Source: a virus
Lineage: Duplodnaviria > Heunggongvirae > Uroviricota > Caudoviricetes
Strand: one strand, 5' to 3'
IMG/VR virus record: IMGVR_UViG_2896607866_000004
Coordinates: 1-40,991 of that record
Length of the DNA: 40,991 bases
Both the position numbers and the translations under genes were made by a program. Below the pieces are notes generated by a model. The model was not told where the DNA came from and made no database searches. It worked only from the letters and a program-made list of their open reading frames with translations. Shown one piece after another: positions 2,991 to 10,325 of the stretch; position 1 is the stretch's first letter; each line of letters starts with the position of its first letter.

Positions 2991-3560
2991 TCATTCCGGA
3001 TGCTCCTGAGCCACGTTGAAATCGCCATGATCACGACAAGGCATCACAACAAATTCAGGATTGCCATACATTGAGTTGATGATGGAATCAAACTGAATTC
3101 TGACCGCTTGCCCGTCACCGGAGGGACGTAACTGGACGGGAATAAATTTACGCTCACGACCAAACATCTTCTCTGGATAACTCAGGTAACCCGCCTGGAG
3201 CACCGGGTGAGTACAGCGGTCAAACTTTTTCGGAATGATGCGATCCAAATCCGGAAAACAACCGTCCACCAGTTTAATGCCGGTAATGGACAGTCGTCGC
3301 TGAAACTGGTCGCGATGAACAGCGATCGGCTCTTTACTAAAAATCAGCTCTGTCGTTTCGGCTTTGGCCGGGACGCCCCCTTCGAACTGGACAATGATGT
3401 TTTTCTTCGTCCGGATGCCGTGAGCCATGCGCAGTGCCACGGAACCATTGGTTGCCTCAATATGTTTCGGCGTGATGTGAAGACCGTTCAGGTAATAACG
3501 AACGTCGTTTTTAGCAGCGCACACCAGAGCGGCGCGAATAAGTTTTGACTGGATGATCAT
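2991..3560 (-). CDS. hypothetical phage early protein (189 aa)
   Basis: ORF whose start overlaps the stop of the upstream antirepressor-like gene (ATGA at 3557-3560); no family recognised. Confidence 0.5.
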   Translation of the reverse strand: MIIQSKLIRAALVCAAKNDVRYYLNGLHITPKHIEATNGSVALRMAHGIRTKKNIIVQFEGGVPAKAETTELIFSKEPIAVHRDQFQRRLSITGIKLVDGCFPDLDRIIPKKFDRCTHPVLQAGYLSYPEKMFGRERKFIPVQLRPSGDGQAVRIQFDSIINSMYGNPEFVVMPCRDHGDFNVAQEHPE

Positions 3561-4306
3561 GCTTTATCCTCCCATCCGATCACCTGGAAAAGCCCCATCT
3601 TCGGGTGATACCAGCGTGTGCCGCGTGGTTCAGCCTCTGACATCATTTGGTGGAACGCCGCCATAAATGGCTCAAGCTCGACGATAGCCCTGCGAGACAA
3701 CAGACCGTCCGGAGTCATGAATTCGTGGGTGTCTGTAGGAATTTGATATGCGTTCACCAGATTCCGACACTTGGCGTCACTCATTCCACTTTTGGCTACC
3801 ACCTGGCGGTAACCGACATATCCGGCGCGCATTGTGCCGCGTTTGATGTTCTCCACAGCTTTGGTGACCGTTTCGATCTTCTTTTCAACATGACTCAGGC
3901 GCTTTTGCTGGCGAACGGCATCGGCGGCCATTGCAGCGATCATCTCCATTTCCGTCAGCGGCGCGTGAGTTCGGAAATAGCTGTTAACCAGTTCGCGCTG
4001 AACCTGCCAGGCCAGATCGTCGGTGAAGGATTTCACCAACATCAAATAACCGGATTCGACCAGTACAATTCCTGCTGCTGCAAATTTTGAGAAAGTACCG
4101 TCAGGGAGGTGTCGACGAATTTCGTCGGAACCTAATTCGAAGTAGTCTTCCCCTTCAATAAGACGAGACTTGTTTTCGCGGAAATTGCGTCCCGCTGTTC
4201 CGTCCGGGCGTTGGTGCACTTCATCAATCATCGCCAGCGTCACCACGCGCTGACCGCGATATTCGATTACCGGAAACTGTTTGTTGTTGATGGTTACAGT
4301 ATTCAT
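3557..4306 (-). CDS. antirepressor-like protein, ORF6N-type N-terminal domain plus KilAC (ANT) C-terminal domain
   Basis: Start MNTVTINNKQF at 4306 with GGAG SD 6 nt upstream (ORF track long form starts 4381). N-terminus matches the ORF6N/Bro-N pattern; the C-terminal 130 aa are about 75-80% identical to the C-terminus of the 10803..11516 product. Confidence 0.7.
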   Translation of the reverse strand: MNTVTINNKQFPVIEYRGQRVVTLAMIDEVHQRPDGTAGRNFRENKSRLIEGEDYFELGSDEIRRHLPDGTFSKFAAAGIVLVESGYLMLVKSFTDDLAWQVQRELVNSYFRTHAPLTEMEMIAAMAADAVRQQKRLSHVEKKIETVTKAVENIKRGTMRAGYVGYRQVVAKSGMSDAKCRNLVNAYQIPTDTHEFMTPDGLLSRRAIVELEPFMAAFHQMMSEAEPRGTRWYHPKMGLFQVIGWEDKA

Positions 4307-4349
4307 TTTTATCTCCAGACAGCCCGGCGTGTAATACCGGGCATATGTA

Positions 4350-5180
4350 TTACTTAACCTGAATAAATGGTGTGTTGGCACCGCTGGTCATGTACTGCAG
4401 CAGTGTGCCGTTCCATTTATTGATGGCTTCCAGCTCCATAACACCGGGGTTCTGGCGCAGAGCTTCACCGCGTAAACGAATTGCATCGGCTTCGGCCTGG
4501 GCTTTTGTGCGAATCGCATCAGCCTGTCCGGCAGCTTCTGCACGCAGCATGTTGGCTTCTGCTTCGCGTTGTTTAACTTCCTGCTCGCGTTGCAGTGTTT
4601 TCTGGTTTGCCGTGACTTTGGCGTTAATGCTGTCGATAACGGTTGGTGGGTACTCTGGCTTACCCACATATGAGAGGCTCATTACCTGAATACCGATGGG
4701 TGTCATTTCTTCCTGGATGTCTTTTAGAGCGGCATCCAGTAATTCAGATTTACCGCCGTCAATAAATTTGTCGGTGGTCATTTTGCTGGCCAGCCGATTG
4801 AGTGCGTCGGCGATCTTCTGGCGCAGGTCTGTATCGGTAATGTCATCCACGCCTTTGCGGTAGGTCTGAAATACCGTGGTAACTTTCGATGGATCAACCT
4901 TATAGGCCACGCCGATGTGATAACCGATGGTTGTGCCGTCGCTCATCTGGAAGCTGAATGGATCATCGTAGGTCTTCATTTGTTTGAAGGTCGGGAAAAT
5001 GTAAACTTCAGTATTCCAGCCAGTCCAGTAGCGACCAACACCGACCACCTCACCGACACCTTTGTCGTCGCCCAGTTTGTTGACTTTGATACCCACATTA
5101 CCTGGTTCAACGCGATCGCAACCTACAAGTCCGAAGACAGCCAGACTGACCGCGAAAACAAGCGCAATTGTTTTTTTCAT
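4350..5180 (-). CDS. SPFH/band-7 (prohibitin-like) domain lipoprotein (276 aa)
   Basis: N-terminal signal peptide with lipobox LVGC; central region resembles SPFH domains by eye; C-terminal coiled-coil-like Ala/Glu/Gln-rich tail; strong GGAGG SD; start overlaps upstream stop (ATGA). Confidence 0.65.
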   Translation of the reverse strand: MKKTIALVFAVSLAVFGLVGCDRVEPGNVGIKVNKLGDDKGVGEVVGVGRYWTGWNTEVYIFPTFKQMKTYDDPFSFQMSDGTTIGYHIGVAYKVDPSKVTTVFQTYRKGVDDITDTDLRQKIADALNRLASKMTTDKFIDGGKSELLDAALKDIQEEMTPIGIQVMSLSYVGKPEYPPTVIDSINAKVTANQKTLQREQEVKQREAEANMLRAEAAGQADAIRTKAQAEADAIRLRGEALRQNPGVMELEAINKWNGTLLQYMTSGANTPFIQVK

Positions 5181-5365
5181 TTTTCCCTCCCGGGGAAAGA
5201 AAGACCCTTATAAATGGCATAAATGCAGGGCGGGGTCAGACACGCCAGAGCAAAGCCAGAAATCACTGCTACCGTATCCTTCATTGATATGAGGGCCGGA
5301 ACAATTAATCCGTAAATACATGCGATAATTGCCAGTGATATAACTATTCTGAAATAAATGTTCAT
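5177..5365 (-). CDS. small integral membrane protein (62 aa), translationally coupled to the SPFH lipoprotein gene
   Basis: AGGAGG SD 3 nt before ATG 5365; two hydrophobic segments; stop overlaps the SPFH gene start. Confidence 0.5.
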   Translation of the reverse strand: MNIYFRIVISLAIIACIYGLIVPALISMKDTVAVISGFALACLTPPCIYAIYKGLSFPGREK

Positions 5366-5425
5366 GGTCCTCCTGATGTATTCGGCTTGCCTTATTTAAT
5401 TGCGTCATGGTTAATTTCGTTTACG

Positions 5426-5818
5426 TCAGAATGGTTTTGTTGCCATCAGTTCGTAATATCCGGCGCTCCATGTGTCATATTTTCTGAACCATTTTTCTGT
5501 ATACTGTTTCCTGGCGATGAGTCTGCGCAGTCGTCTGATTGTTCGCTGGTGTGCGCGGGTATACTCTGTGGTTGATTCTCCACGTTTCCATATCTCATTC
5601 CCGTTGAAGATAAAACGCTTGTCAGGATGGCGTTGTCGGAATCCTGAACGTTCAAAAGCGCGGGTGGTCATAAAGAATGCCAGGTAACGAATTGCCGTTT
5701 TTCGGGTGAGGCATTTTTTTGTTCTTCCGTGGCGTGTTACAAAAAATAACGGGCCGACGGGTGTATCATGTTTCTGTAATGCCTGGTCAATGGCGCTGGC
5801 GGTGCGGTTGTCGATCAT
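5426..5818 (-). CDS. hypothetical basic protein (130 aa)
   Basis: ORF in the leftward operon with start overlapping the upstream gene stop; Arg/Lys-rich. Confidence 0.4.
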   Translation of the reverse strand: MIDNRTASAIDQALQKHDTPVGPLFFVTRHGRTKKCLTRKTAIRYLAFFMTTRAFERSGFRQRHPDKRFIFNGNEIWKRGESTTEYTRAHQRTIRRLRRLIARKQYTEKWFRKYDTWSAGYYELMATKPF

Positions 5819-6033
5819 TTCTTTATTTCCCCCGAATAACGTTCATGACTCATTACTTCCCAGTTCCGGCCGTCGTCTTTCGATAACAGCCGCCAGCGAC
5901 GGTTAACCTTCAGACTGAGATATCCGTTGCGCTGTATCCGATGCGGGAATATACATCGGCATCTGTACCGCCGCAGGACCAGCAACGCCTGCTGGTGGAC
6001 CCACTCAGGAATTCGTGTTGCTGTTAATGTCAC
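5815..6033 (-). CDS. hypothetical protein (72 aa)
   Basis: ORF in operon context with overlapping stop/start to the next gene; no family recognised. Confidence 0.3.
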   Translation of the reverse strand: MTLTATRIPEWVHQQALLVLRRYRCRCIFPHRIQRNGYLSLKVNRRWRLLSKDDGRNWEVMSHERYSGEIKK

Positions 6034-6220
6034 TGGTTTCCTCCTGAGCAGGTGCTGTTATCTGATACCCCGCTCTTTCTGCCAGCCATATGAATGTATC
6101 CATGCTGGCAATCAGCTCTCCATCGCGGACTTTGCAGACACCTGTTACCTGGCCATTTTCAATAGTCATAACGATCTGCACTTTTTCGTGCACAACAGAT
6201 ACAGGGGATAAATTAGCCAT
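6005..6220 (-). CDS. hypothetical protein (71 aa)
   Basis: ORF in operon context; no family recognised. Confidence 0.3.
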   Translation of the reverse strand: MANLSPVSVVHEKVQIVMTIENGQVTGVCKVRDGELIASMDTFIWLAERAGYQITAPAQEETSDINSNTNS

Positions 6221-6579: not shown

Positions 6580-7118
6580 TTGTTATTTCCCGTATGCTTT
6601 ACGCAGAAATAAGCAGGCAATATGCATGTAATTTTCACCGTATTGTGCAATAAGGCAGGCGGTCTTGTGTGATGCCATATTCTTTATTAAAGTCATAATA
6701 AAGCCTCCTGTGGATTAAGGTTGTAACAATCCCCGGTGATAAAACCGCAATAAACGTTCAGGGCATATTTGTTGTTATTGCGCTAATTCTTTTTCGGCAG
6801 CAGCTTTTGAATACTCACATGCAAAGTCCAGAATATCGCTGCCAAGTGCTTTCGTTACGAGGTTACTGGACATATGTAATACCTGTGTTGCATGCAATAA
6901 ATGATAAACATTTACCGCAAATGAATCAGGCTCCAGACAAATGCCTTCGTAATTATCTTGCTGTGAGGTTGTTTCTGTCATTGCTCCTGAAGTGCATGCG
7001 AGCCTGTTTTTGACAATTCTCTTTCCTCTAATCACTATATCGGCAACATCTATTTGAGGTAGCCTGAGTTTAACGGACACTCCTTCCTGAAATAGAATGG
7101 CATCAGAAGGAGCTAATA

Positions 7119-7421
7119 ATGAGCAGAAAAACCCAACGTTACTCTAAAGAGTTCAAAGCCGAAGCTGTCAGAACGGTTCTTGAAAATCAACTTTCGATCA
7201 GTGAAGGCGCTTCCCGATTATCTCTTCCTGAAGGCACTTTAGGACAATGGGTTACCGCCGCCAGAAAAGGGCTCGGTACTCCTGGTTCCCGCACGGTGGC
7301 TGAACTGGAATCTGAAATTCTGCAACTGCGTAAGGCGTTAAATGAAGCTCGCCTTGAGCGCGATATATTAAAAAAAGCAACAGCGTATTTTGCACAGGAG
7401 TCGCTGAAAAATACGCGTTAA
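7119..7421 (+). CDS. IS3-family transposase OrfA (100 aa)
   Basis: MSRKTQRYSKEFKAEAVR… HTH/leucine-zipper-type OrfA; slippery site near its 3' end. Confidence 0.85.
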   Translation: MSRKTQRYSKEFKAEAVRTVLENQLSISEGASRLSLPEGTLGQWVTAARKGLGTPGSRTVAELESEILQLRKALNEARLERDILKKATAYFAQESLKNTR

Positions 7422-7456
7422 TCGAACAATGGCGACAACAATTTCCCATTGAAGCG

Positions 7457-8275
7457 ATGTGTCAGGTATTTGGTGTATCCAGGAGCGGTTATTACAACTG
7501 GGTACAGCATGAACCCTCAGACAGAAAACAAAGTGATGAGCGGCTAAAACTGGAGATTAAGGTGGCACATATCCGCACTCGCGAAACATATGGAACCCGG
7601 CGGCTCCAGACGGAGCTGGCAGAGAATGGCATCATCGTTGGTCGTGACCGACTGGCACGTCTTCGTAAGGAGCTAAGGCTACGCTGTAAGCAGAAACGCA
7701 AGTTCAGAGCGACTACGAACCCGAACCACAATCTGCCAGTTGCGCCAAATCTGCTGAACCAGACGTTCGCTCCTACAGCACCAAATCAGGTCTGGGTGGC
7801 GGACCTGACGTATGTTGCCACACAGGAGGGATGGTTGTACCTCGCTGGCATCAAAGATGTTTATACGTGCGAAATTGTCGGCTACGCCATGGGAGAGCGC
7901 ATGACAAAAGAGCTGACAGGTAAAGCCCTGTTTATGGCGCTCAGGAGCCAGCGCCCACCTGCCGGGCTAATCCACCACTCTGATCGAGGTTCACAGTACT
8001 GCGCATACGATTACCGGGTCATACAGGAGCAGTTTGGTCTGAAAACATCAATGTCGCGTAAAGGTAACTGTTACGACAACGCTCCGATGGAAAGCTTCTG
8101 GGGAACGCTGAAAAATGAGAGCCTGAGCCATTATCGTTTTAATAACCGGGATGAAGCCATCTCAGTAATACGGGAATACATTGAGATTTTCTACAATCGT
8201 CAGCGTCGTCACTCTCGTCTGGGGAATATCTCCCCGGCAGCCTTCAGGGAAAAATATCATCAGATGGCTGCTTAA
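7457..8275 (+). CDS. IS3-family transposase OrfB (DDE catalytic domain), expressed as OrfAB by -1 frameshift
   Basis: 272-aa ORF in the -1 frame relative to OrfA; 100% identical to the OrfB of copy 2. Confidence 0.85.
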   Translation: MCQVFGVSRSGYYNWVQHEPSDRKQSDERLKLEIKVAHIRTRETYGTRRLQTELAENGIIVGRDRLARLRKELRLRCKQKRKFRATTNPNHNLPVAPNLLNQTFAPTAPNQVWVADLTYVATQEGWLYLAGIKDVYTCEIVGYAMGERMTKELTGKALFMALRSQRPPAGLIHHSDRGSQYCAYDYRVIQEQFGLKTSMSRKGNCYDNAPMESFWGTLKNESLSHYRFNNRDEAISVIREYIEIFYNRQRRHSRLGNISPAAFREKYHQMAA

Positions 8276-8534
8276 AAAAGAACAAATGGTAGTGTCCGCT
8301 ATTGCCAGTACACCTCAATTGCCTTTACAACCTCCGGGAGAAGTTCCTGGTTTGTATAATCAAAGTTATCAACATGGAGAACAGTTATGTTTTCGAACTT
8401 TTTCATGGCTTCCTCAGCTGACTTATATGTTCTGCTATATAGCGAGTCTCAGAAGTGTTTTCATATTGAGACTGTTTCCGCAATGATTGATAAAAATGTT
8501 CGCATGTACCTTGAGGGGCGAAGCGGCGATTTTG

Positions 8535-9229: not shown

Positions 9230-9919
9230 CTAACCAAATCTGTTTATGTTGAATGGTACTGATGAGATCACTTTAGACTGGATATAAAGCAGAGCTAACC
9301 CCTCTTTTTCGATGCTCCATGGTTGATAATTGGGGTTATCAGATAACACCATGATTTTGCTTCCAATTTTTTGAAGCCTTTTCACGTAGCATTCTCCATC
9401 AAAACAAAATGCATAAATACCATCGCCATCAAAATAAGTTACTGTCTTATCAAGAAAAAGAAGGTCACCAGGTGAGATTGTGGGAGCCATACTGTCTCCT
9501 CTGGCGTTACCTATTTCTATATTTTTGAATGCCCGATTTCCAACAAGACGTCGGGCATATTCAGGATCAAGTTCTATTGAGCGCACTACATCTATCAAGT
9601 CACCACGGACATGAGTTCCATCACCGCAACTAAACTCAACATCAAGGACATTAAACACGACGCTATCTGTTCTTGTCTGGTGTTTCTCTTGCGAGGAAAA
9701 GGTTGGTGAGGAGTCTTCACCTAAGAACCAGGATTGTGGATAACCGCTAATCTCTGATAAATGCGCGAGCTTATCACTCCGTGGAAATGTTTTTCCTGTT
9801 GTCCAGTACTGCACTGATTGCGCACTCACACCTAACTTGCGGGCCAGTTGAGCCTGAGTCCATCCTTTTGCTTTCAGCATCGCGGCTATTCGATTTTCCG
9901 TGTTTTTGACGTTCTTCAT
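9230..9919 (-). CDS. cI: CI-type repressor (N-terminal HTH, C-terminal S24 LexA-like peptidase domain)
   Basis: HTH …GWTQAQLARKLGVSAQSVQYWTTGK…; C-terminal GDSMAPTI… with downstream Lys (…YVKRL…) typical of the Ser/Lys dyad. First ATG is at 9919 (ORF track extends to 9925 via TTG). Divergent from the cro-like gene. Confidence 0.85.
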   Translation of the reverse strand: MKNVKNTENRIAAMLKAKGWTQAQLARKLGVSAQSVQYWTTGKTFPRSDKLAHLSEISGYPQSWFLGEDSSPTFSSQEKHQTRTDSVVFNVLDVEFSCGDGTHVRGDLIDVVRSIELDPEYARRLVGNRAFKNIEIGNARGDSMAPTISPGDLLFLDKTVTYFDGDGIYAFCFDGECYVKRLQKIGSKIMVLSDNPNYQPWSIEKEGLALLYIQSKVISSVPFNINRFG

Positions 9920-10052
9920 GACCAAATCCTGTGGGTTTCTTTACAAGGATAAATCTTTACTTGATTTTAGTGTATTCGATCCTTTTGCAACTTGCATGTT
10001 AATTTAAACTTGATGTATTCTTGATTTATAAAGTTAATGTTGGTGCTTTGTT
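9920..10052. promoter_or_regulatory. divergent cI/cro promoter-operator region (OR-like)
   Basis: 133-bp AT-rich intergenic region between divergent cI and cro-like genes. Contains an 11-bp palindrome TGCAAcTTGCA (about 9986-9996) and three CTTGAT motifs (about 9958-10026). Individual operators not assigned. Confidence 0.5.
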
Positions 10053-10325
10053 ATGAAAGGAAATGATTACGACAAACTTCGTGCATTAATTGCGCAAAAT
10101 GCCATAGCGCGAAATCTGGGTGTGACACCGCAAGCGGTGAATCAGTGGTTTTCAAAAAGCACAATTCCTGCCCGTTTCGTTTTACGCGTATGTGAAGTAG
10201 TTGCATGTAAGGTCACGCCGCATGGCTTAAGGCCAGATCTTTATCCTCACCCTGAAGATGGAATTCCTGATTCGTTACGCAAAATTTCAAATCCAAGCTT
10301 AGCGCACACAGAGGATGAGAAGTGA
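10053..10325 (+). CDS. cro: Cro-like HTH protein (90 aa)
   Basis: Small ORF divergent from cI; motif …LGVTPQAVNQWFSKSTIPARFVLRV… resembles Cro/YdaS-type HTH. Confidence 0.6.
   Translation: MKGNDYDKLRALIAQNAIARNLGVTPQAVNQWFSKSTIPARFVLRVCEVVACKVTPHGLRPDLYPHPEDGIPDSLRKISNPSLAHTEDEK

Follow-up and report, generated by a model that had tools for sequence, protein, structure and literature searches.

What purpose is served by two overlapping phage genes, one for a tiny membrane protein and the other for a lipoprotein with a prohibitin-like domain? SPFH proteins (prohibitin, HflK/C, stomatin and flotillin) are universal membrane-compartmentalizing cages whose functions in bacteria are debated, and phage carriers offer a genetically simple read-out of them (burst, exclusion and lysogeny frequency). 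The pair considered here lies in a Shigella/E. coli-type prophage, of which we analyzed the whole 40,991-nt stretch (IMG/VR record IMGVR_UViG_2896607866_000004), called the window below; an ipaH-like effector gene is also aboard.

Both proteins already fall into PHROG families, the lipoprotein into phrog_200 (E = 2.3e-113) and the membrane protein into phrog_1130 (E = 1.9e-23), and phage genome papers and records frequently name the SPFH gene or mislabel it a ‘serine protease’. A search of the full-text literature returned no functional study of the phage SPFH family; it yielded remarks in genome annotations and a single study of an SPFH protein from a Pasteurella prophage. The original prediction that this is not a described phage function therefore stands in that literature.

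Gene arrangement and transcription of the pair

Both genes are read from the minus strand, a detail to be added to the original prediction. The 62-aa hairpin gene occupies positions 5365..5177 (ATG at 5365-5363), and the 276-aa SPFH/Band_7 lipoprotein gene occupies positions 5180..4350 (ATG at 5180-5178). By reading of the sequence, an AGGAGG Shine-Dalgarno element (5369..5374, minus strand; CCTCCT on the plus strand) lies 3 nt 5′ of the first ATG, while a GGGAGGG element (5185..5191, minus strand) lies 4 nt 5′ of the second, within the 3′ end of the hairpin gene. The stop codon of the hairpin gene and the start codon of the SPFH gene overlap as ATGA (5177..5180, minus strand), a sign of translational coupling, and the identical 4-nt overlap recurs in P88, Pylas, phiE125 and Ostro and at loci L241, L314 and L328. 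The letters thus bear out what had been predicted of a two-helix protein and a lipoprotein joined by an ATGA overlap, each with a strong ribosome-binding site.

Downstream of the pair is an ORF6N/anti-repressor-family gene (3557..4381, or beginning at an ATG at 4306), and upstream are small early-left ORFs followed by a cI-like S24 repressor gene at 9230-9925, which confirms the predicted placement in a leftward early operon beside an anti-repressor-family gene. A consensus scan, which is crude and leaves room for an internal or non-sigma-70 promoter, found no sigma-70-like promoter in the 60-nt gap upstream of the pair; no terminator-like site was found after it. Together, these two results argue against a classic moron expressed from the prophage, and since the scan turned up neither element, we rejected a self-standing moron flanked by a promoter and a terminator of its own. 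Among virulent phages, the pair is located within early or middle DNA-metabolism genes with no annotated lysis gene adjoining it; crAss cr126 has a peptidoglycan hydrolase two genes 3′ of the pair.

The description of the locus also has to be amended for an IS600 copy at 7055-8279, which separates the pair from the candidate pL in this prophage. Consequently, the pair may be poorly expressed here. We considered whether the immunity region had been turned around by the two IS600 copies, which are in inverted orientation, and rejected this because the gene order is that of an IS-free E. coli relative; the change is a simple insertion.

The SPFH lipoprotein and its hairpin partner

The 276-aa product matches the Pfam family PF01145 (Band_7) with an E-value of 8.1e-31 and a score of 107.9 bits, compared to a gathering cut-off of 23.6, and the match extends over residues 23-209 and model positions 2-176 of 176. 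The SPFH domain so delimited (residues 23-209; 4554..5114, minus strand) is supported by the Pfam envelope, AlphaFold2 and Foldseek, and consists of a beta-rich SPFH1 part (residues ~21-95) and an alpha/beta SPFH2 part (residues ~97-176). In the secondary structure of the model, it is followed by a 65-residue helix rich in Ala, Glu and Gln (residues 179-243; 4452..4646, minus strand), the counterpart of the wall helix (CC1) of SPFH cages, which lines up with helical stretches of HflK and prohibitin. The C-terminal segment (residues 244-276; 4353..4451, minus strand) carries K-W-N/D-G-x-L-P ... P-F, the family's most conserved motif, in which W256 is invariant and G258 and P261 are kept in at least 90% of 110 family sequences.

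An AlphaFold2 model of the protein reached a pLDDT of 91 and a pTM of 0.73 when built with the 110-sequence alignment (a single-sequence run gave an unusable pLDDT of 48). Foldseek aligned the model to prohibitin, HflK/C, erlin, stomatin, QmcA and flotillin with a probability of 1.00 over ~240-300 columns; the full-length matches (~280 columns) had E-values of 1e-14 to 1e-8 for prohibitin (8rrh), HflK/HflC (7vhq, 9cz2 and 7wi3), erlin, stomatin and QmcA. A profile search of the PDB ranked prohibitin-1 (1.4e-11) ahead of HflK (1.6e-7), QmcA (1.3e-6) and HflC. NCBIfam gave sub-threshold HflK, HflC and FloT matches only, and the sequence is 99% identical to an NCBI entry named ‘SPFH/Band 7/PHB domain protein [Shigella boydii]’. 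Pfam, AlphaFold2 and Foldseek therefore agree with the predicted SPFH domain and coiled-coil tail, and on the predicted structure the architecture is that of a cage-type SPFH protomer (anchor, SPFH1, SPFH2, wall helix and cap segment).

The anchor appears to be a lipid. A lipoprotein signal peptide (residues 1-20) precedes a lipobox cysteine, Cys21 (L-V-G-C), and then Asp22 (5118..5180, minus strand). The N-terminus reads MKKTIALVFAVSLAVFGLVG followed by C21-D-R, and the pattern MKK-TIALVFAVSLAVFG-LVG-C21 fits a basic n-region, a hydrophobic h-region and a lipobox of the form [LVI][ASTVI][GAS]C. Cys21 is kept in at least 90% of 110 diverse SPFH family members, 113 of the 142 full-length family representatives fit a loosely defined lipobox-like pattern, and CDRVEPG is present in every copy at 85 related phage, prophage and phage-plasmid loci. 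Asp22 is accordingly shared by the window and all of those copies, with Arg at position +3. In enterobacteria, Asp at position +2 is the Lol-avoidance signal; it is not kept outside Enterobacteria and Burkholderia, and the non-enteric relatives have S, T, E or G at this position.

The 62-aa product is a hydrophobic hairpin (GRAVY 1.17) with two predicted transmembrane helices in an N-in/C-in orientation and a conserved turn, P23-A-L-I-S27-M-K-D. A close homolog in phage Pylas carries the annotation ‘2 TMDs N in C in’. Across an alignment of 26 hairpin homologs, the turn is P-x-(L/M)-(I/V)-S, with S27 invariant and P23 present in at least 90%, and 22 of the 26 diverse hairpins match phrog_1130. 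We ruled out a chance ORF: the hairpin frame is kept across 20 alleles with a dN/dS of 0.24-0.5, compared to 0.7-1.05 in the shifted frames, and homologs exist in very distant phages. An alternative 66-aa ORF in another frame (5208..5408) was also rejected, as its product is not hydrophobic and the lower dN/dS belongs to the hairpin frame.

The hairpin has no Pfam match at E <= 0.1 and no holin match in PHROG or Pfam, and its 26 homologs have chance-level transmembrane matches only in Pfam at E <= 1. When a hairpin profile was run against a database of 5.8 billion proteins, whose word index limits short hydrophobic queries, nearly all matches were enterobacterial ‘hypothetical proteins’ that added no new contexts or names.

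Spread of the cassette and rival explanations

By sequence comparison, the hairpin and SPFH genes are a conserved two-gene module (phrog_1130 plus phrog_200). Its temperate carriers are lambdoid, P2-like, P1-like and SSU5-like phages, and its other carriers include N4-like, PVP-SE1-like, Pseudomonas, Burkholderia, Vibrio and crAss-like phages. The hairpin ORF abuts or overlaps the SPFH start at 83 of the 85 close loci, and the hairpin partner is also found in Pylas, PVP-SE1, phiE125, Ostro, CKB-S1, Pokken and crAss cr126 and at loci L091 and L092. When SPFH proteins were clustered at 70% identity (n = 40), a hairpin-HMM match was located immediately upstream in 28 clusters, downstream in 1 and one gene off in 2, while 6 further clusters have either a hairpin that the HMM missed or fused extra transmembrane helices. 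Combining the HMM with inspection, about 36 of the 40 clusters have the partner next to the SPFH gene, one gene off or fused to it; the partner is not recognizable in some clades (DL54, phiEa104, phiCbK and L170). The proposal to look for conservation of the pair across prophages is thereby answered, as it is kept in many unrelated phages of Gram-negative bacteria. The same prediction had allowed for a ubiquitous core gene set with a known function; instead, the pair, though widespread, occurs sporadically as an accessory, and has no function on record.

In distant relatives, the two proteins occur as a single ORF. The hairpin is fused to the SPFH protein in 19 of 150 family representatives and, in those that were inspected, the hairpin comes first, then a basic linker, the lipobox signal peptide and the SPFH domain. 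The phrog_200 profile (379 positions) was matched only from position 80 on, leaving space for an N-terminal extension such as a fused hairpin. Viral contigs were scanned with four single proteins from different clades; a separate scan with the fusion protein P0159 returned 3 loci only.

The DNA similarity to phiP27/Stx-type prophages stops within a few bases of both genes, and the comparison of sequences indicates that the pair is a self-contained cassette that moves between many unrelated phages, both temperate and virulent. The mature SPFH protein is 95-98% identical among lambdoid, P2-like and P1-like carriers, compared to 16-79% for the hairpin, and the hosts of the SPFH family's phages range from Enterobacteria to Bacteroides. 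The cassette is present in 716 of 5426 complete E. coli genomes (~13%), on prophages or phage-plasmids. In P1-like phage-plasmids of the RCS47 type, it fills the ban-to-plp/upl locus, which in canonical P1, P7, SJ46 and D6 holds tciABC/TerB, annotated as tellurite or colicin resistance. SPFH genes of this type, which phages have acquired repeatedly, maintain under strong purifying selection and swap among lambdoid, P1-, P2-, SSU5- and N4-like and further phages, are probably useful in infection.

What that use may be is the point on which the rival explanations differ. The main rival is superinfection exclusion or envelope protection, whereby an early complex would alter the inner membrane or periplasm against secondary genomes, colicins or envelope toxins, with a likeness to T4 Imm/Sp, HK97 gp15 and P22 SieA in logic and not in sequence; we regard it as a serious but unlikely explanation. 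It fits an envelope-located pair that is predicted to be expressed early and that forms a sporadic accessory cassette in virulent and temperate phages alike, and PHROGs classes the hairpin under ‘moron, auxiliary metabolic gene and host takeover’. The exchange with tciABC/TerB at the P1-like locus points the same way; ter determinants give phage inhibition and colicin resistance. However, exclusion proteins are usually receptor- or phage-specific and fast-evolving, while the near-identity of the mature SPFH protein is maintained across carriers with different tails and receptors, and the family's host span is wide. Moreover, lambdoid and P2-like carriers keep the pair in an early lytic operon and not where a prophage would express it, no PADLOC-DB v2 model of anti-phage defense matched either protein at E <= 0.1, and no PHROG superinfection-exclusion family did so at E <= 0.01. 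A less specific benefit, general stabilization of the inner membrane or lysis timing, would keep the membrane energized and intact during virion production with no specific client, protecting it for instance from holins that trigger too soon, from lysis from without or from abortive-infection effectors that target membranes. SPFH proteins in general are tied to membrane integrity and stress tolerance (for example PMC10434171, PMC12005517), numerous large-burst virulent phages carry the pair, and a small N-in/C-in protein with two transmembrane helices has the topology of class II holins or antiholins. We nevertheless find this explanation improbable, since the very strong conservation of the soluble domain suggests specific contacts, the hairpin matches no holin family, and no annotated holin, endolysin or spanin adjoins the pair in the contexts inspected (the hydrolase of crAss cr126 is the nearest). 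The related identity of a class II holin, pinholin or antiholin was rejected for the early-left location, the missing PHROG and Pfam holin matches and the invariable SPFH neighbor.

A third explanation is lysogenic conversion, in which the prophage would express a surface or vesicle lipoprotein that acts as a TLR2 agonist and virulence factor, as for PM0222 of Pasteurella multocida. This HflK/C-like prophage SPFH protein of 25-35 kDa was found in lysogen cells and outer membrane vesicles, triggered TLR1/2 signaling, and attenuated virulence when deleted (PMC9872710). PM0222 is possibly related to the SPFH protein described here, and its detection in lysogens and vesicles counts against an infection-phase role at the inner membrane; the ipaH-like effector gene of the Shigella-type window would also suit a virulence role. 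Yet triacylated lipoproteins activate TLR2 generically, and a role in mammalian virulence cannot account for a module that strictly virulent phages commonly carry, as do phages that infect environmental and plant bacteria. With no promoter detected immediately upstream of the pair and an Asp+2 that predicts inner-membrane retention in enterics, we hold this explanation to be very improbable. The probability that the product is a serine protease or ‘membrane protease subunit’ is close to nil. It is annotated as such (‘putative serine protease’ or ‘serine protease’) in phiP27, in many Stx2-phage records, in AJ298298 and the LC5678xx records, in phage Pastis and in Kosakonia proteins, and the label probably stems from the old COG name ‘membrane protease subunits, stomatin/prohibitin homologs’. 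The protein has no protease domain: Band_7 is its sole Pfam domain, the SPFH fold and helices account for the whole chain, and a phrog_11227 ‘protease’ match is weak (E = 0.0016) and limited to the coiled-coil region. The identity is effectively refuted, and the label needs correction in many database records.

Proposed mechanism and comparison with known systems

We propose that the two genes encode a phage-borne SPFH scaffold that faces the periplasm and controls a host inner-membrane machine, a mechanism for and against which we see about equal weight. Its structural part, a two-subunit scaffold facing the periplasm, is quite probable, while a role during infection rather than in the lysogen is an evenly balanced matter. 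Sec export and Lgt/LspA processing would hold the SPFH domain on the outer leaflet of the inner membrane, where the protein would form a ring or cage of the kind known from prohibitin and HflK/C. The hairpin, whose synthesis is coupled 1:1 to that of the SPFH protein, would keep both termini cytoplasmic and expose its P-x-L-I-S turn at the periplasmic face of the membrane, directly beneath SPFH1. It would supply a bilayer-spanning ‘palisade’, for which single-gene SPFH proteins use their N-terminal helices. Produced soon after infection or induction, the complex would fence off patches of inner membrane and thereby control a conserved host machine in lytic development, either for host takeover or for membrane quality control.

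The foremost candidate for the client is FtsH, since the two closest structural relatives of the SPFH protein both cage FtsH-family proteases on the non-cytoplasmic face. The HflK and HflC equivalog scores are far under their cut-offs (25.4 and 23.4 bits for TIGR01933 and TIGR01932, compared to 134.4 and 159.4; 20.2 and 18.6 bits for PRK10930 and PRK11029, compared to 660 and 427), so that the link to FtsH draws only on general SPFH relatedness, and the cytoplasm-facing QmcA, which is also a fold match, counts against it. By this analogy FtsH is a tentative and rather doubtful client. The fullest version of the proposal is likewise speculative, and we would sooner doubt than assert it: many Gram-negative phages would carry an unrecognized two-part device, a periplasmic prohibitin-like cage and a hairpin ‘fence’, that captures or walls off an inner-membrane machine, with FtsH as the leading candidate. 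In some lineages, the device would be made as one polyprotein and split by the lipoprotein signal peptidase, and its outcome would be reprogrammed membrane proteostasis or blocked entry of competitors. If true, phage host takeover or exclusion would gain a new class of mechanism, and SPFH proteins their first type of partner other than NfeD. The hairpin, whether separate or fused, provides a testable model of a transmembrane fence for a lipid-anchored SPFH ring.

Compared to existing descriptions, what is new is the recognition of the pair as a conserved module, separate or fused, with a non-NfeD hairpin partner. The two proteins are direct members of phrog_200 (‘lipoprotein’) and phrog_1130 (‘membrane protein’), families with no assigned function, and the obligate pairing or fusion of hairpin and SPFH protein is not recorded in PHROGs or in any paper that we found. 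The tciA-tciB-tciC genes of P1 and TerB of P7 share the ban-to-plp/upl locus with the pair and are also accessory, envelope- or stress-related cargo, but their proteins are unrelated to it and the function of tciABC is inferred from annotation only. T4 Imm/Sp, HK97 gp15 and T5 Llp, phage-made inner-membrane proteins and/or lipoproteins that shut out superinfecting phages at the envelope, either early in infection or from the prophage, resemble the pair in logic only; we found no sequence or family relation, and they are small and fast-evolving and are not SPFH scaffolds.

The SPFH-NfeD pairs (QmcA-YbbJ, 8z5g; YqiK-YqiJ; FloT-YuaF; PH1511-PH1510) likewise couple an SPFH gene to the gene of a small membrane protein. 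The NfeD-like partner that had been suggested for this locus was nevertheless ruled out, as the hairpin lacks an NfeD/OB-fold domain and any Pfam match, and its two transmembrane helices, with their P-x-L-I-S turn, account for the whole 62-aa protein. In addition, the partner gene precedes the SPFH gene, and the SPFH domain is predicted to be periplasmic rather than cytoplasmic. The hairpin would be a second kind of SPFH partner besides NfeD.

The prohibitins (PHB1/PHB2, the ‘SPFH4 p-prohibitins’ of Hinderhofer) are the closest solved relatives, both by profile and by Foldseek, at an identity of ~15-18%. They have the non-cytoplasmic orientation that is predicted for the pair, and they share with it the lack of an NfeD partner, which is described for the SPFH3 and SPFH4 groups in a 2009 survey by Hinderhofer that makes no mention of phage or lipoprotein SPFH proteins (PMC2636767). 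They differ in having an N-terminal transmembrane helix and in forming heteromers around m-AAA proteases, with no hairpin partner or lipidation described. HflK/HflC (PDB 7vhp, 7wi3 and 9cz2) are among the best fold matches and the best E. coli sequence match of the SPFH protein. They have the same succession of SPFH1, SPFH2, long helix and C-terminal segment, a periplasm-facing orientation that is predicted for the pair, and two co-expressed polypeptides. Unlike HflK/HflC, however, the phage-borne pair has one SPFH gene in place of a K/C heteropair, its neighbor is a 62-aa hairpin, and a lipid on Cys21 together with that separate hairpin takes the place of the N-terminal transmembrane helix of HflK and HflC.

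The SPFH lipoprotein and its overlapping upstream gene

The pair is encoded on the minus strand. Its upstream member is a 62-aa ORF (5365..5177; MNIYFRIVISLAIIACIYGLIVPALISMKDTVAVISGFALACLTPPCIYAIYKGLSFPGREK) with the Shine-Dalgarno sequence AGGAGG located 3 nt 5′ of its ATG, and its TGA shares bases with the ATG of the 276-aa SPFH ORF (5180..4350; GGGAGGG 4 nt 5′ of ATG) in an ATGA overlap. In phiP27-type alleles, the frame of the upstream ORF has a dN/dS of 0.24-0.5, compared to 0.7-1.05 in shifted frames. The N-terminus of the SPFH protein has the typical features of a lipoprotein signal: MKK, then a hydrophobic core and LVG ahead of Cys21, which is followed by Asp22.

Pfam Band_7 covers residues 23-209 of the SPFH protein (E = 8.1e-31), and PHROGs assigns it to phrog_200, 'lipoprotein' (E = 2.3e-113). 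Its AlphaFold model, built from an alignment of 110 diverse homologues (pLDDT 91, pTM 0.73), consists of a signal helix, a beta-rich SPFH1 (~21-95) and an alpha/beta SPFH2 (~97-176) followed by a single helix of 65 residues (179-243), and ends in a short helix (245-255) plus tail. Foldseek comparison to the PDB yielded full-length matches (240-300 columns, probability 1.00) to solved SPFH cage subunits, including prohibitin, HflK, HflC, erlin1/2, stomatin, QmcA and flotillin, and also to major vault protein, while profile searches ranked prohibitin-1 highest (1.4e-11), followed by prohibitin-2, HflK (1.6e-7), QmcA (1.3e-6) and HflC. Across the 110 homologues, G49 and W256 are invariant, and Cys21 and a C-terminal K-W-N/D-G-x-L-P are also among the most conserved positions; in solved SPFH cages, the C-terminal region closes the assembly. 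Membership in the SPFH superfamily is established, and the structural model identifies the protein as a protomer of the cage-forming type. The structural reading in the original prediction, an SPFH lipoprotein with a membrane partner, is upheld: both ORFs are real, and the SPFH domain is supported by Pfam, AlphaFold and Foldseek. Orthology to HflK or HflC is ruled out (23-25 bits versus cut-offs of 134-159), and the protein does not belong to the SPFH-NfeD type.

Conservation of the hairpin partner

Our main new result is that the 62-aa protein, a two-helix hairpin, is, on comparative sequence evidence, a conserved and dedicated partner of the SPFH protein. In 83 of the 85 close loci with upstream DNA, the SPFH start is directly preceded or overlapped by a hydrophobic two-TM ORF. 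The hairpin has 62 aa and an ATGA overlap in phiP27-type phages, 78 aa in P1-like RCS47-type phages and 66 aa in the SSU5-like Cyrano; it overlaps by 4 nt both in the P2-like P88, where it is annotated as 'membrane protein', and in the N4-like Klebsiella phage Pylas (gp28, '2 TMDs N in C in'). It is gp44 in Burkholderia phiE125, an unannotated ORF in Stenotrophomonas phage Pokken, and gp116 in PVP-SE1, where one small gene separates it from the SPFH gene. The same arrangement is found in Pseudomonas phage Ostro, Vibrio phage CKB-S1, one crAss-like phage and metagenomic viral contigs. All of these hairpins have a common turn motif, G-x-x-(V/L)-P-x-(L/M)-(I/V)-S-(A/S)-x-(S/D), and among 26 hairpin sequences the turn Ser is invariant and the turn Pro is at least 90% conserved. 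Of these sequences, 22 match phrog_1130, and Pfam yields no credible match for any of the 26.

We surveyed 332 loci, clustering their SPFH proteins at 70% identity into 40 evaluable clusters. A hairpin-HMM match was located directly upstream on the same strand in 28 clusters, downstream in one and one gene away in two, and was absent in nine. In four of these nine, a two-TM ORF of 54-84 aa that the HMM missed lies at the SPFH start, overlapping it by 4 nt in three clusters and abutting it in the fourth, and has a P-x-(L/M/V)-(L/F)-(N/S) turn; in another two, the SPFH N-terminus carries fused extra TM helices. In 19 of 150 representatives of the family, chosen by clustering at 50% identity, the hairpin is itself fused to the SPFH protein, in the order hairpin, basic linker, lipobox signal peptide and SPFH where inspected, with one C-terminal hairpin fusion among them.

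Several variant loci were observed. At P0160 and L090, the hairpin comes after SPFH, either as a separate downstream gene or as a C-terminal fusion, and at the P0323-type loci (L323 and L327) extra N-terminal TM helices are fused straight to an SPFH domain without a lipobox. In PVP-SE1, gp117 (L087, 2341-2505) is a 54-aa soluble charged ORF between the gp116 hairpin and gp118 SPFH genes, and gp119 and gp120 are further small membrane-protein genes after gp118; this lineage may carry a larger membrane-protein cluster. In the published genomes of P1-like RCS47 (L003, 4775-5011, minus), Pokken (L095, about 1290-1485, plus) and phiP27 (L001, 3304-3492, minus), the hairpin gene is left unannotated in spite of being a conserved 62-78-aa ORF directly upstream of the SPFH gene.

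Both proteins were already in PHROG families without function, and several genome papers remark on the SPFH gene as puzzling (e.g. PMC13239085). We found no description in the literature of the obligate hairpin partner, the fusion forms or the conserved turn. The module is widespread, strongly conserved and easy to test, and it bears on the still debated role of SPFH cages in bacteria.

Prophage setting and mobility

The window is a lambdoid prophage with an integrase (894-2180, minus), a cI-like S24 repressor (9230-9925, minus) and a Cro/YdaS-like gene (10053-10325, plus); ORF sizes, the sole basis, suggest lambda-like tail genes. At its far end, an ipaH-type gene (38038-39681, minus) encodes a 547-aa IpaH-type type III secretion effector with LRR and NEL (novel E3 ligase) domains. 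Together with IS600, this gene indicates a Shigella or enteroinvasive E. coli origin; the best protein match to the SPFH protein is labelled Shigella boydii (99%).

The pair sits within the leftward early operon, with small ORFs upstream and an ORF6N/anti-repressor-family gene downstream. The sole good leftward promoter-like site is a candidate pL (9165-9137); there is none in the 60-nt gap 5′ of the hairpin gene, and no terminator-like site was found after the SPFH gene. The ORF6N gene (ATG at 4306) is separated from the SPFH stop by a 43-nt spacer (4307-4349). Just past the stop, this spacer contains a short inverted repeat without a T-run (CCCGG-N9-CCGGG, minus strand), which belongs to the segment that moves with the pair in phiP27-type prophages (similarity from ~4321). 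Two identical IS600 copies (IS3-family; 7055-8279 and 20209-21433; 1225 nt each, 100% identity) are inverted to each other, 11.9 kb apart. The left copy is inside the leftward early operon and separates the candidate pL/HTH gene from the pair, which may be poorly expressed in this degraded prophage. The same gene order is seen in the closest E. coli relative with a complete genome (98.6% identity, without IS, integrated beside mlrA), indicating that no inversion occurred between the copies.

Elsewhere in the early-left operon, a 72-aa ParE-like toxin (5815-6033, minus; PF24732, E = 1.5e-17), two genes upstream of the hairpin gene, and an overlapping 71-aa ORF upstream of it without a family match (6005-6220, minus) are probably a toxin-antitoxin pair. 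A 189-aa protein (2991-3560, minus) matches phrog_3007, 'RusA-like Holliday junction resolvase', but this label conflicts with its weak matches (Pfam E = 0.007; phrog_947 E = 2e-4), which are to the DNA polymerase III beta / processivity-factor fold.

The SPFH protein was found by tblastn in 374 phage records. Temperate carriers include phiP27 and Stx2 phages, P88, P1-like and SSU5-like phages and Burkholderia phiE125, while carriers generally held to be virulent include Schitoviridae, Vequintavirinae, Ounavirinae, Bruynoghevirus, phiCbK-like phages, jumbo phage Munch, Lak megaphages and one crAss-like phage. The gene is also carried by 716 of 5426 complete E. coli genomes, with about half of its places on plasmids. 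Between the window and phiP27/Stx-type prophages, DNA similarity ends within a few bases of the pair (window ~4321-5369), and since the flanks differ, the pair moves as a cassette. Across lambdoid, P2-like and P1-like carriers, the mature SPFH protein is 95-98% identical (87-90% in DNA), compared to 35-53% for the signal peptide and 16-79% for the hairpin. Consequently, the soluble part is much more constrained than the membrane part.

Candidate functions and proposed architecture

The main alternative to the mechanism proposed below is that the pair acts in superinfection exclusion or envelope protection, exclusion being among the roles raised in the original prediction. Such a role suits its early, envelope-located and accessory character, and also its position in P1-like phage-plasmids, where the pair occupies the ban-to-plp/upl locus that in P1, P7, SJ46 and D6 holds tciA-tciB-tciC/TerB instead. 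However, PHROG and PADLOC searches give it no family support, and it fits poorly with the strong conservation of the SPFH protein. Generic membrane stabilisation or control of lysis timing is possible, but no annotated holin, endolysin or spanin gene lies beside the pair in the contexts inspected; the nearest lysis-type neighbour is a peptidoglycan hydrolase two genes downstream in crAss cr126. Pasteurella PM0222, a candidate family member, reportedly has a virulence or TLR2-agonist role (PMC9872710); a role of this kind cannot account for the pair in virulent and environmental phages. A role in favouring lysogeny, on which one genome paper speculated for a phage HflC-like gene (PMC10269572), cannot apply generally, given the many virulent carriers. 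Records of phiP27, of many Stx2 phages and of some bacterial proteins (e.g. AJ298298, LC567830, LC567840) label the lipoprotein 'serine protease' or 'putative serine protease'. These labels are rejected, as the protein has no protease domain; they look like a propagated annotation error.

Starting from the observed fold, lipobox, coupling, fusion forms, cassette behaviour and operon position, we propose a mechanism whose steps draw on what is established for SPFH cages and for the sorting of lipoproteins. Judging by its position, the pair would be expressed as part of the early operon, both in this prophage (pL) and in P88; its neighbours in virulent phages are early/middle DNA-metabolism genes. 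The SPFH protein would be exported, lipidated at Cys21 and, in enterics, held in the inner membrane by Asp+2. Because SPFH1 begins two residues past the lipid, it would lie flat on the outer leaflet of the inner membrane. By the positive-inside rule, both hairpin ends should be cytoplasmic (R6 at the N-terminus; K53, R60 and K62 in the C-terminal tail), consistent with the Pylas annotation and with the fusion forms, whose basic linker and signal-peptide n-region must be cytoplasmic. The P-x-L-I-S turn would thus be placed at the periplasmic surface, beneath SPFH1.

As the client, we favour a conserved target in the host inner membrane; FtsH is the leading candidate, a hypothesis that we consider rather unlikely to be correct as it stands. 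Three observations favour this choice: the closest relatives are the two cages enclosing FtsH-family proteases on the same membrane face, conservation of the mature domain is extreme among phages that use different receptors, and the family occurs in very different hosts. By analogy with HflK/C and prohibitin, the protomers may assemble into a ring or cage, with the hairpins supplying a bilayer-spanning palisade at an expected 1:1 stoichiometry, given the translational coupling and the fusions. Whereas HflK/C builds this palisade from its own TM helices, the phage pair would build it from separate hairpins.
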